A stretch of DNA of 64,000 nucleotides from a virus. Its lineage: Duplodnaviria > Caudoviricetes. Of this stretch, positions 9,265-25,441 are shown piece by piece. How positions within the stretch are numbered: position 1 is the first letter of the stretch; every line of letters begins with the position of its first letter. The stretch spans positions 1 to 64,000 of IMG/VR virus record IMGVR_UViG_3300037400_002732; one strand, given 5' to 3'. Both the position numbers and the translations under genes were made by a program. The notes beneath the pieces are model-generated. The model was not told the origin of the DNA. It saw only the letters and a list, made by a program, of their open reading frames with translations, and made no database searches.

Positions 9265-9374
9265 ATGACCCGTAGCGGACTAATTTGGCGTTCATTCCAC
9301 TACGGGCCATGTAATAAACATCACCACAGTACATTGAAGAACGCCAATTATCCAATGTTCTGCTTTAAGTTTAT
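9265..9374 (-). ncRNA. Kissing-loop 5' leader A with ATAAACT promoter
   Basis: P1 9327-9362 and P2 9265-9310; loops UUGGCGUUC / GAACGCCAA are complementary. Confidence 0.7.
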
Positions 9375-18658: not shown

Positions 18659-18763
18659 ATAAACTCATATTATATAAGTTCGTGGTGGTTCTTGTATAAT
18701 GCGTGGTAATTTTTAAATGCCAGTTGGATGCTAACCACCACTTTAAGCGTCTAACTGGCATTT
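18659..18763 (+). ncRNA. Kissing-loop 5' leader B with ATAAACT promoter
   Basis: P1 18668-18701 and P2 18715-18763; loops GUGGUGGUU / AACCACCAC are complementary. Confidence 0.7.
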
Positions 18764-18771
18764 GCTATTGT

Positions 18772-20154
18772 ATGGAACAGCAGTGCGGACGAAAGATAGG
18801 CTTACTGCCGACTAAGGCTCAGATACGGACGATGTACCGTATGTGTGCAGTCGCTCGTCACGCATATAACTGGAAGCTCGCTGTCCAGAATCAAGCCTAC
18901 GAGGAAGCCAAGAAGAACACACCAGAAGGTGAAAAGCCAAAGTGTAAGCTCGGTACTCCTATTGACTGGCATAAGGAATGGTGCATCCACAAGAAGCTCC
19001 CAGAAAACAAGTGGATGACAGAAGTATCCAAGTTCTGCGGCCAAGAGGCCCTAATCGACCTCGGTTCCGCATGGAAGCGGTTCTTCAAGGGTCTAGCCAA
19101 GCATCCACGGTTCCATAAGTACGGCGTAGACGAATCGTTCCGGTGTTCTGGCGGAGTATTCATTGGTCGTGATTTCGTTCAGTTGCCTACGCTCGGCAGA
19201 GTAAGACTAGCCGAGAAGGATTACATCAAGATACCGGACGGTGTGGTGAAGACTCCGATTGCGATGGCTACAGTATCAGTAGACCCTACTGGTCACTGGT
19301 CGATATCGTTCGCCTACCATGTCGATGTAGAACCACTTTATTCGCCCAATACCGAAATTACTTCCGATGACATCGAAGGCATCGACCTCGGTGTGAAGGA
19401 TTCTGGAATCACTTCTAGTGGAATAGTATATTCCAATCCGAAGGCATACCGACGCTATATAGCTCGTATCAAGAGATTGCAGAAGGCAATATCTAGGAAA
19501 CGCAAGAAGTCAAAGAACCGCAAGAAGGCTAGTAAGCGGTTAGCCAAGACTTGGCACAAGGTCACCTGTATCAGAGTGAACCATGCTCACCAGATGACTT
19601 CCGACCTAACTTACAAGTTGAAGCCAAAGATGATTGTGATGGAGACACTTCGACCAGGTAATATGACGAAGAACCACAATCTTGCATCCAGTATCCTAGA
19701 TGCCAATTTCGGTAGAATCAAGGAATTTCTTAAATACAAGTGCCAATGGCTTGGTATCAATCTCATCTTTGCTCCGCAGTTCTATGCAAGCAGTCGATAC
19801 TGCTCGCACTGTGGATGCTACCATAATGACAATTTAACTCTCGCTGACCGTGAATGGACATGCCCGGTATGCGGCTGTCATCATGACCGTGACGCCAATG
19901 CGGCGGTCAACCTCAAATTCTATGGTCAGTGGTTGGCTGGACTCGTCCAGACCGACGAAAATGTTGCGGCGCGATTAGCCGTAGGCGGATGTTCCGCCGA
20001 TGCTTGCCCTTCTGTATATCAGAAGGAAGGTATGACTTTTGTCAACCCCAGAGACCGGAGGTTACAGTTCTTCCTAACGGATGAATCGTGCCGGACTATG
20101 AAGCAAGAACTCAATACATATTATAAACCATACAATAGTATAAACTATGGTTAA
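18772..20154 (+). CDS. tnpB: TnpB RNA-guided RuvC nuclease (IS200/IS605 or IS607 type), no tnpA
   Basis: HTH_OrfB-like N-terminus (ARHAYNW), GIDLGVK RuvC-I, VMETL RuvC-II, CSHCG..CPVCG Zn finger, DRDANAAVNL RuvC-III. Confidence 0.92.
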   Translation: MEQQCGRKIGLLPTKAQIRTMYRMCAVARHAYNWKLAVQNQAYEEAKKNTPEGEKPKCKLGTPIDWHKEWCIHKKLPENKWMTEVSKFCGQEALIDLGSAWKRFFKGLAKHPRFHKYGVDESFRCSGGVFIGRDFVQLPTLGRVRLAEKDYIKIPDGVVKTPIAMATVSVDPTGHWSISFAYHVDVEPLYSPNTEITSDDIEGIDLGVKDSGITSSGIVYSNPKAYRRYIARIKRLQKAISRKRKKSKNRKKASKRLAKTWHKVTCIRVNHAHQMTSDLTYKLKPKMIVMETLRPGNMTKNHNLASSILDANFGRIKEFLKYKCQWLGINLIFAPQFYASSRYCSHCGCYHNDNLTLADREWTCPVCGCHHDRDANAAVNLKFYGQWLAGLVQTDENVAARLAVGGCSADACPSVYQKEGMTFVNPRDRRLQFFLTDESCRTMKQELNTYYKPYNSINYG

Positions 20155-24516: not shown

Positions 24517-24555
24517 ATTTGACTCCTTTTAATGTTAACGATAACTGATGTTAAA

Positions 24556-25317
24556 TTACATTATTTCATTTTCAAGCAGAACTGAAGCAATTCGTTTAAT
24601 TACATTAGCCTTGTCGGCCTTATATTCGCTTGCCCATACGGAAATTACTGTGTAGCCCATTCCTCGAAGCACGTCCAAACGTTCTTTGTCATGTTCCCAG
24701 ATGTCCTTGGCGGTTATATTATGGTGAATAATATCGGTTGCTTGATATTTAGCTGGATTAGCATGCCAGAAATCGCCGTCATACTCAATAATGTACTTAC
24801 CAAAGGTGAAGTCCGGAAATATCCACTTGTCGCCATAAGGAATTGTTTTCATTGACTCAAGTTTACTCGCCGATTCGCCCAAGGATTGACGTAAGTCTTC
24901 GCCAAACTGTAATTGTTCCTTAGAAAAATTAGGCGATACATGTTGATTCCATACTATTGCGCCACTTTTCCACGTCTGCTTAAACCGTTCTGCACGAAGT
25001 TTTCGCTGTTCGGGATCTTTAAATTGCTCATGCGCGTTTTTACTCTGTAACGCTTTAAATTCATCCGAACGAGTCAGACCAGTCATGCCAGATATGACTT
25101 TAGCACGATATGAATCATCCTCCCACAATTTCTTAGAAGCATCTGCAGTAGCCAATTTAATCTTATCTACGGTTTCTTTTGAATGTTTACGACCGAAAAA
25201 CGGATTATTAGCCCCAGTTCGATCGCGGTGCGCGTTGCAATAGCCAGATTTATTTTTGTCACTTATACGGCAACCACACTTCAAGCAATGCTTATTCAAT
25301 TTATGTCCACTAGCCAT
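24556..25317 (-). CDS. Putative homing endonuclease: NUMOD3 DNA-binding motif plus Vsr/DUF559-like nuclease
   Basis: CLKCG..YCNAH; NPFFGRKHSKET (NUMOD3); FPDF..IIEYDGDFWH..D..R...GYTVISVWASE. Confidence 0.8.
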   Translation of the reverse strand: MASGHKLNKHCLKCGCRISDKNKSGYCNAHRDRTGANNPFFGRKHSKETVDKIKLATADASKKLWEDDSYRAKVISGMTGLTRSDEFKALQSKNAHEQFKDPEQRKLRAERFKQTWKSGAIVWNQHVSPNFSKEQLQFGEDLRQSLGESASKLESMKTIPYGDKWIFPDFTFGKYIIEYDGDFWHANPAKYQATDIIHHNITAKDIWEHDKERLDVLRGMGYTVISVWASEYKADKANVIKRIASVLLENEIM

Positions 25318-25323
25318 AAAAAA

Positions 25324-25425
25324 ATCCTACCGGAACTAGCCCTTCCGATAGGATACAACACGCCTAAGCGTGTTTAAACTTAACTACATATCAGCAAGGG
25401 CTAGTTGCTTTTAATAGAAGTTTAT
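25324..25425 (-). ncRNA. Kissing-loop 5' leader C with ATAAACT promoter
   Basis: P1 loop ACUAGCCCU (25397-25405); P2 25324-25354 with loop AGGGCUAGU; extra hairpin at 25357-25374. Confidence 0.65.
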
Positions 25426-25441
25426 ATGATGTCGAGTTGAC

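Follow-up and report, generated by a model that had tools for sequence, protein, structure and literature searches.

In this study we analysed leader C, an RNA leader lying in front of a free-standing homing endonuclease gene in the first 64 kb (64,000 nucleotides, hereafter the window) of the 174.8-kb phage record IMGVR_UViG_3300037400_002732. As judged from the covariation among its relatives, leader C has a real conserved fold, made of three hairpins, P1, Px and P2, and of a 7-bp helix joining the loops of P1 and P2 (the kissing helix, or kiss). The family to which it belongs is native to a TnpB insertion element and, in the window, has been transplanted onto a Vsr-type homing endonuclease, an association which is new here. 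With regard to function, we favour, with a probability of about one half, a cis-repressive leader in which P2 hides the ribosome-binding site of the nuclease gene and the kiss locks P2.

Specifically, leader C belongs to a conserved family of cis-acting 5' leader RNAs of ~100 nt, with the three hairpins in the order P1, Px and P2. The 7-nt loops of P1 and P2 form the 7-bp kissing helix, and in the lower stem of P2 an anti-Shine-Dalgarno-like UCCU is paired with the AGGA of the gene. In the reading that we favour, the ribosome-binding site would be buried in this way, and the kiss with P1 would further tie down the -17 kcal/mol P2. Little nuclease would then be translated, either from RNA started at an ATAAACT motif or from RNA reading through from the upstream rtcB gene. 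The TnpB-native leader became joined to the unrelated Vsr-type homing endonuclease, and the pair entered the genome after rtcB as one insertion.

Fold and covariation of leader C

All leader coordinates given here refer to the minus strand of the window. The gap between the rtcB stop codon and the nuclease AUG at 25317 is 124 nt long and holds every leader C element listed in Table 1. P1, with an energy of -1.8 to -2.2 kcal/mol, can alternatively be drawn as 4 bp closing a 9-nt loop, ACUAGCCCU. The loop of P2 is the 7-nt sequence GGGCUAG (25342-25336), and its lower stem pairs UCCU with AGGA, which fold prediction leaves unpaired with a probability of 0.00-0.16. The U7 run that follows P2 may serve as the tail of a terminator, as a U-rich spacer, or in both roles. 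The AAGUUUA/UAAACUU helix between the linker motif and the promoter heptamer is possible in read-through transcripts only. Beyond the loops, the two hairpins share a perfect 11-nt complement, AACUAGCCCUU/AAGGGCUAGUU, which pairs 25406-25396 with 25344-25334.

Table 1. Positions of leader C, its neighbouring genes and the two other leaders of the same genome within the window
Feature	Position	Strand	Remarks
Leader A	9265-9374		same genome as leader C
Leader B	18659-18774		same genome as leader C
Free-standing homing endonuclease gene, 253 aa	24556..25317	-	N-terminal zinc finger and NUMOD3; putative C-terminal Vsr-like nuclease
Inserted cassette, ~860 bp	24583..25441	-	promoter, leader C and most of the nuclease open reading frame; absent from close relatives
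U7 run	25318..25324	-	directly after P2; first U is the last base of the P2 stem
P2 hairpin	25324..25354	-	12 bp including one U.G, 5 GC pairs, -16.7 kcal/mol
AGGA, Shine-Dalgarno-like	25325..25328	-	in the P2 3' arm, 7 nt upstream of AUG
Px, extra hairpin AACACGC-UUAG-GCGUGUU	25357..25374	-	7 bp, UUAG loop, -9.2 kcal/mol
Linker motif AAGUUUA	25375..25381	-	complementary to promoter heptamer RNA (UAAACUU)
P1 hairpin AGCAA [CUAGCCC] UUGCU	25393..25409	-	5 bp, 7-nt loop
P1 loop CUAGCCC	25398..25404	-	5' strand of the 7-bp kissing helix; pairs with 25342-25336
ATAAACT heptamer	25419..25425	-	recurrent promoter-like motif of the phage; putative promoter
rtcB, 378 aa	25442..26578	-	Pfam RtcB, E 9e-58; TAG stop 25444-25442 is the 5' edge of the insertion

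A previous sequence-only reading of the window had described two hairpins with pairing loops, an extra hairpin between them and an 11-nt complementarity. Our analysis recovered each of these parts where that reading had placed them, the 11-nt match being a perfect inverted repeat, and four helices covary in 11 copies. The same reading had called P1 short and bulged; short and weak it is (about -2 kcal/mol), but it carries no bulge. Both the AGGA motif inside the P2 3' arm and the homology of leader C to the leader of a TnpB insertion element had been overlooked.

Two further observations concern the layout. A third copy of the P2-loop sequence, GGCUAGU, lies at codons 1-3 of the nuclease (25309-25315, minus) and complements the P1 loop. 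This pairing is present in the minimum-energy fold of the promoter-initiated window leader and is kept in no relative; the copy is probably due to chance or specific to the window. Moreover, the P1-Px linker contains an AUG-UAG start-stop pair (25384-25389, minus), in frame with the nuclease open reading frame and not conserved in relatives.

When the 124-nt leader was shuffled 5000 times with its dinucleotides preserved, 10 shuffles contained a distant inverted repeat of 11 nt or longer (0.2%, p 0.002), and both 9-mers of the complement are unique within the 174.8-kb genome. Across the whole genome, where ~410 hairpins have a stem of 9 bp or longer, a complement of at least 9 nt between a loop and its upstream sequence was found only in leaders A, B and C and in one promoter palindrome, leader B being picked up in mirror image from the other strand. 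A pattern search with CATATAAACTT..AAAGCA returned mostly chance matches, and one with the Px-P2 pattern returned none.

The conservation of the fold is clearly evident from the alignments. With the pseudoknot included, 98.6% of a nine-copy MAFFT alignment was paired and 10 pairs changed on both sides, compared to 21-38% paired in slid controls. In an 11-copy alignment, fitted to the nested structure, 98.8% of cells were paired, pseudoknot included, and two-sided changes were counted at 22 of 31 pairs, some of these counts in P2 reflecting a register shift caused by a longer bacterial stem. None of 500 shuffles reached the observed values, and structures slid by 1-3 columns gave 21-37% paired. 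The 7 pairs of the kissing helix are all formed in 11/11 copies, and 3 of them covary; variation is confined to the four central positions, where five codes occur (AGCC, CGCA, GGUC, GGUA and GGCA). Since the kissing helix is absent from the covariance model, the alignment did not favour it. In P1, 100% of cells are paired and 4 of the 5 stem pairs change on both sides, while in Px this holds for 6 of 7 pairs, the stem being fully re-coded between the window and the other copies.

P2 follows a different pattern. Its lower stem (AUCCUA/UAGGAU) and the U-tract that follows are invariant across the 11 copies, with AGGA unchanged in 11/11 and a spacing to the AUG of 7-13 nt kept throughout. At least 4 U directly follow the stem in every copy, with a variable spacer beyond them. 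In the copies from Paludibacteraceae, a different helix, 2 bp longer, takes the place of the upper stem.

The TnpB element and the insertion after rtcB

A scan for hairpin pairs with complementary loops revealed a twin of leader C in the related phage record G002 (IMGVR_UViG_3300037454_000941). The twin combines a 4-bp and an 11-bp stem with 9-nt loops, a 37-nt gap and a U-run before the ATG, and it precedes a 423-aa TnpB. Searching IMG/VR with the shared P2 3' arm led to nine loci, all ahead of the same TnpB, and a TnpB protein search in bacterial genomes uncovered the same design in a Paludibacteraceae metagenome-assembled genome (MAG), including CATATATAAACT and the AGUUUA linker. Altogether, the layout of leader C is common to eight rumen-phage copies from IMG/VR and three copies from the Paludibacteraceae MAG, all of them located before TnpB.

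A covariance model (R1) built from nine phage copies, the window included, gave the window a score of 93 bits (E 2e-24), a value to be read knowing that the window is one of the building sequences of the model. The same model detected the independent Paludibacteraceae copies L433 and L435 at E 5e-9 and 3e-8, respectively, together with a third copy in the same MAG; it detected neither leader A nor leader B. The family as sampled comprises 12 copies in two subfamilies only. Rfam, including its HEARO and IS605-orfB motifs, gave no match over the leader even at E up to 10.

The genomic context of the TnpB element varies across phages, while its left end is always the same: a hairpin, a TTGAC-type box, an ATAAACT or ATAAGCT motif and the leader. 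Because this left end is constant across differing contexts, we consider the leader native to the TnpB insertion element. When the 8-kb TnpB locus of G002 was compared to the genome of the window by BLAST, the leader was the only match (73% identity over 115 nt, E 8e-8); the sharing of the leader alone between the phage genome and the TnpB locus of a relative indicates that it is a portable module. As a side observation, the Paludibacteraceae TnpB copies (L433:1086-1097, L435 and L443) carry CATATATAAACT, the same as the general gene-start signal of the phage. Possible explanations are that these contigs are phage-derived, that expression is tuned to phage infection, or that the motif has an RNA role by pairing with AGUUUA. 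A further related record, G001 (IMGVR_UViG_3300037512_000782), is 348,092 bp long, almost exactly twice the ~174 kb of the genome studied here, and may be an assembly concatemer.

The arrival of the leader in the window can be followed by comparison with seven IMG/VR relatives whose RtcB is 75-77% identical. Relatives L005 to L010 align with the window up to the rtcB stop codon. In L005, L006, L008 and L010, rtcB is directly followed by a ~65-nt intergenic hairpin and then by a homologue of the 209-aa gene of the window; L007 shows the same arrangement plus ~30 nt extra after the stop. Homology to the ancestral intergenic region resumes, by direct alignment, at GTTC(T/C)G within the last nine nuclease codons, and the stretch from ~25441 to ~24583 is on this ground a single ~860-bp insertion. 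L009 and L011 have different sequences at the site downstream of rtcB, which suggests an insertion hot spot; the insert in L009 is ~460 bp long (L009:4137-4600), and unrelated sequence begins in L011 at L011:4137.

With regard to the borders of the insertion, the last nine nuclease codons and the stop (24556-24583) are encoded by diverged ancestral intergenic sequence. A TGnTATAAT-like box (TGAAATAAT), located upstream of the 209-aa gene in the relatives, survives within 24517-24575 of the window and may provide that downstream gene with a promoter of its own. The 9-mer CTAGTTCCG of the P2 loop and 3' arm (25331-25339) recurs unchanged in nuclease-free relatives (L005:4133-4141), where it spans the rtcB stop and the insertion point, and AGTTCCGG is conserved also in the TnpB-linked leader copies. 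This match to the empty site may be a coincidence, a microhomology guiding insertion or the mimic of a homing site. Local alignment of the leader to the upstream flank or to the empty site gave no significant similarity, bar one alignment to L005 (32 of 2000 shuffles, with no correction for multiple tests).

The gene behind the leader had been described in the sequence-only reading as being of NUMOD3/Vsr type, and our searches agree with this, identifying a NUMOD3 motif, an I-TevI-type zinc finger and a putative Vsr-like nuclease domain. The Pfam NUMOD3 model scored 23.5 bits against a cut-off of 20.4, and PDB entry 1i3j, the DNA-binding domain of I-TevI, matched residues 8-54 (E 0.0015); MTES_1575 (E 2.6e-6) and DUF559 scored just under their curated cut-offs. 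By tblastn, the gene resembles 'putative VSR endonuclease' genes of Aeromonas phages (42% identity), while megablast against GenBank phages returned no match. Among the 50 homologues found, the closest are 53-57% identical, and the catalytic-type columns D169, E178 and H185 are invariant. No member of the nuclease family was found in five related records, and in distant homologues from IMG/VR and metagenomes (L092-L098 and others) the upstream regions are unrelated and carry no such leader.

Repression and its alternatives

Transcription of leader C would start at ATAAACT, which is a genuine recurrent signal in this phage. It occurs at 55 genomic sites compared to 27 expected, and 39 of these lie 18-62 nt before an ATG-started open reading frame, whereas for one-mismatch variants the share before such frames is ~0-35% (56% for one low-count variant). 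From this distribution we infer a promoter function. A conserved TTAAACT on the opposite strand was considered as an antisense promoter and rejected, as 2 of its 20 sites precede genes against the 39/55 of ATAAACT.

Sequestration of the putative ribosome-binding site by P2 is supported by the constancy of UCCUA/UAGGA and of the spacing to the AUG, in contrast to an upper stem that is free to vary. Precedents exist in the T-even homing endonuclease genes (PMC2988022) and in the IS200 tnpA leader (PMC4513863). A number of points weigh against a static cis-repressive leader. A P2 of -17 kcal/mol would block initiation alone, and a pure lock leaves the strict conservation of the kiss with P1 unexplained. 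An opener or a switch would better fit the antisense relation of P1 to the P2 apex and the isoenergetic long helix described below, while, given the conserved U-tract, P2 could just as well be taken for an intrinsic terminator. In addition, the presence of copies in a Bacteroidota MAG casts doubt on AGGA as a Shine-Dalgarno sequence in the real host, and the position of the transcription start site is assumed.

A tentative alternative, which we hold to be possible though far from probable, is a kinetic or 5'-end-dependent switch. According to this hypothesis, the kiss would nucleate an extended duplex in which the P1 domain pairs with the P2 apex, splitting the lower stem of P2 and freeing AGGA and the AUG; the same duplex would also block the terminator hairpin. 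The open form would be transient on nascent or own-promoter transcripts, leading to few initiations, while in read-through RNA the promoter region would pair with the AGUUUA linker and stabilise the P1 domain, so that P2 wins and the gene is off. A similar relief of repression through a late promoter is found in T-even phages (PMC2988022). In support of the hypothesis, the P1 domain of both subfamilies reproduces the P2 apex almost completely in antisense, despite their differing stems, a property that is new here; the corresponding duplex energies range from -22 to -26 kcal/mol among the phage copies, with -21.9 for L433. This parallel change of P1 and P2 apex suggests selection for the extended duplex but could equally stem from inverted duplication or gene conversion. 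Akin logic is reportedly found in the fold-back inhibition of read-through transcripts of IS10 and IS50, and in the kinetic control said to operate on the MS2 maturation gene.

Energy calculations with a nested model point in the same direction. For both 5' ends the long helix, built on the 11-nt complement, is the minimum-energy fold until the P2 3' arm is made. Over nine copies, the free-energy difference (ddG) between long helix and P2 ranges from -2.9 to +2.8 kcal/mol, near zero, in promoter-initiated RNA and from +1.3 to +7.2 kcal/mol, favouring P2, in read-through RNA. Differences of such size are within the error of the model, which ignores the kissing contact, and the omitted kissing bonus favours the closed form. 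For the window, the nested minimum is -39.0 and the long helix -37.7 kcal/mol, while a rough sum for the kissing state, with a pseudoknot penalty of the kind used in published programs, gives about -38 to -40 kcal/mol; the states are therefore too close for the calculations to decide the fold.

Comparative evidence bears on the long helix as follows. The covarying pairs belong to both the kissing and the long-helix models and, being shared, cannot discriminate between them. The extension from 7 to 11 nt consists of the four A-U closing pairs of both hairpins and is invariant in the phage copies. In the Paludibacteraceae copies, by contrast, these four flanking positions are unpaired in the long helix, yet they still close P1 and P2, with the closing pair of P2 flipped from A-U to U-A; for this reason the 11-nt figure is lineage-specific. 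A further 5-bp extension of the long helix exists only in the window. The RNAalifold consensus does include the helix between promoter AAACU and linker AGUUU, together with a 2-bp helix with compensatory changes, but the promoter-linker helix shows no covariation (AGUUU is invariant) and its duplex is no stronger than in shuffles. The sequence-only reading had itself proposed a switch-like mechanism, and the idea is plausible although unproven: the promoter versus read-through energies agree with it, and although the bacterial copies do not keep the 11-nt extension, they do keep the broader complementarity between P1 and the P2 apex.

Joining these elements, one could imagine, speculatively and with considerable doubt, a portable 'self-antisense' dosing cassette composed of a promoter and a leader. 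P1 would kiss and then invade the apex of the Shine-Dalgarno-sequestering P2, opening a brief translation window per transcript and none for read-through RNA; the 4-nt codes would prevent cross-reaction between co-resident copies, and the cassette would be traded among TnpB and homing endonucleases, and among Bacteroidota genomes and the large phages infecting them.

It is unlikely, in our opinion, that leader C is primarily an attenuator or a stand-alone small RNA. Here P2 and the U-tract would terminate most transcripts from ATAAACT or rtcB, producing a ~100-nt leader RNA, the nuclease would be made only from terminator read-through, and the kiss would tune termination efficiency. In agreement with this, P2 with its U7 run ranks fifth of the 20 terminator-like sites listed in 18 kb, the run of at least 4 U is kept in all copies while the distal spacer varies, and termination need not be polar, as the 209-aa gene keeps its own TGnTATAAT-like sequence. 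A terminator is present at the left end of IS200 (PMC4513863), and small RNAs are reported to arise from the IS200 5' untranslated region (UTR) (PMC5435999). On the other hand, the evident terminators of the region have GC-rich stems and 3-4-nt loops, whereas in P2 only 5 of 12 pairs are GC and the loop has 7 nt. A terminator would not need the sequence invariance of UCCU/AGGA, and a good U-tract is missing from leaders A and B and from the G002 leader at 141746, which are built alike.

Very improbable is a trans-acting address code, by which P1, alone or processed, would act on the P2 loops of co-resident copies, the 4-nt codes setting or avoiding cross-talk. Such a code would resemble the antisense incompatibility and immunity of ColE1 RNA I/II, R1 CopA/CopT and the P4 CI RNA, and the fully paired 7-nt loops match the geometry of antisense kissing complexes. 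Five codes occur in the 12 copies, and the closely related copies L419 and L330 differ at 6/14 kissing positions compared to 6/112 others (Fisher p 4e-4). Other pairs of copies, however, differ at 0/14 kissing positions versus 24/112 elsewhere, and taken together the kissing columns vary no more than the other leader columns do (p 0.55). As neither 9-mer has a further occurrence in the genome, this copy is without a second target here. Diversifying selection on the loops was considered as well and is unsupported overall (p 0.55).

Finally, we give almost no credit to a DNA-level feature, such as a palindrome bound by a protein or the inverted repeats at the ends of a miniature element, or to a repeat arisen by chance: the 11-bp inverted repeat does flank a 51-bp segment, but no other copies of the repeat exist in the genome, G-U pairs are tolerated, compensatory changes in four helices are strand-specific, and the shuffle test reported above (p 0.002) also disfavours chance.

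Relation to known systems

Selfish nucleases need to be expressed, but barely, and how they are restrained outside T-even phages is largely unknown. Our literature search found no paper linking kissing loops with the leaders of homing endonucleases or TnpB. Leader C adds a compact, covariation-backed RNA of ~100 nt, absent from Rfam and common to the RNA-guided TnpB and a protein-only homing endonuclease; that these two have the leader in common shows the passage of expression-control modules from one class of mobile element to another. A kiss-to-duplex switch, if true, would be a natural, ligand-free and programmable RNA device with a 4-nt address, and might help to tune the expression of TnpB-type genome editors.

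Leaders A and B of the same genome share with leader C the ATAAACT motif, a P1, a strong P2 by the AUG, a 9-11-nt loop-loop complement and a promoter-AUG distance of 108-116 nt. Leader C alone has Px, 7-nt loops, a clear AGGA in P2 and a perfect U-tract. Two further kissing leaders precede other TnpB genes in G002, at 115305 (minus) and 141746-141842 (plus). Their complements are GUGGUUGGC/GCCAACCAC and a AACUACCACA pair of 10 nt, and both leaders are related to leader B but differ from it in their loops. Considered as an intrinsic terminator, P2 is a candidate by its parts: 5 of the 12 bp in its stem are GC, the loop has 7 nt, and the U7 run follows directly.

In T-even phages, homing endonuclease genes (I-TevI, I-TevII, I-TevIII, segB and Aeh1 mobE) use hairpins that sequester the ribosome-binding site (PMC2988022). 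Features in common with a cis-repressive leader C are the residence of a selfish nuclease in a host operon, the burial of the Shine-Dalgarno sequence, ~8 nt from the AUG, in a stable hairpin, and the presence of a late-type promoter immediately upstream. As in those genes, the Shine-Dalgarno-like AGGA of leader C is held in the 3' arm of a stable hairpin (-16.7 kcal/mol) with an unpaired probability of at most 0.16. The T-even late promoter, however, is located within the hairpin or beside it, and the 5' arm is thus missing from late transcripts, whereas ATAAACT is 65 nt upstream of P2, no second ATAAACT occurs inside leader C, and every transcript has the full P2. Leader C also differs in that P1 kisses the P2 loop, and no sequence similarity is seen.

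At the left end of IS200, tnpA is preceded by a terminator and by a 5' UTR stem-loop masking the Shine-Dalgarno sequence (PMC4513863). Here too, in the IS200/IS605 world, a structured leader at the left end represses the gene of the element by hiding its Shine-Dalgarno sequence, and the homologues of leader C lie within the left end of the TnpB element. The controlled gene is tnpA in IS200, but tnpB or a homing endonuclease in the leader C family; in addition, no antisense promoter was found for leader C, and the kissing P1 has no counterpart in IS200.

Fully paired 7-nt loops are found in the antisense kissing complexes of ColE1 RNA I/RNA II and R1 CopA/CopT. As in these, the complementarity of the two leader C hairpins reaches from the loops, where all seven bases of each can pair, into a large part of the stems; the antisense complexes can proceed from the kiss to an extended duplex. 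The ColE1 and R1 partners, however, are separate RNAs from opposite strands, whose complementarity is automatic, whereas in leader C the two hairpins lie in tandem on one RNA and keeping them complementary requires double mutations.

The guanidine-II (mini-ykkC) riboswitch also has two small tandem hairpins in a 5' leader with interacting loops, thought to control access to the Shine-Dalgarno sequence (PMC7544219). Its ACGR tetraloops are conserved and bind the ligand, whereas the loop sequences of leader C vary freely while remaining complementary, which argues against a ligand pocket in leader C.

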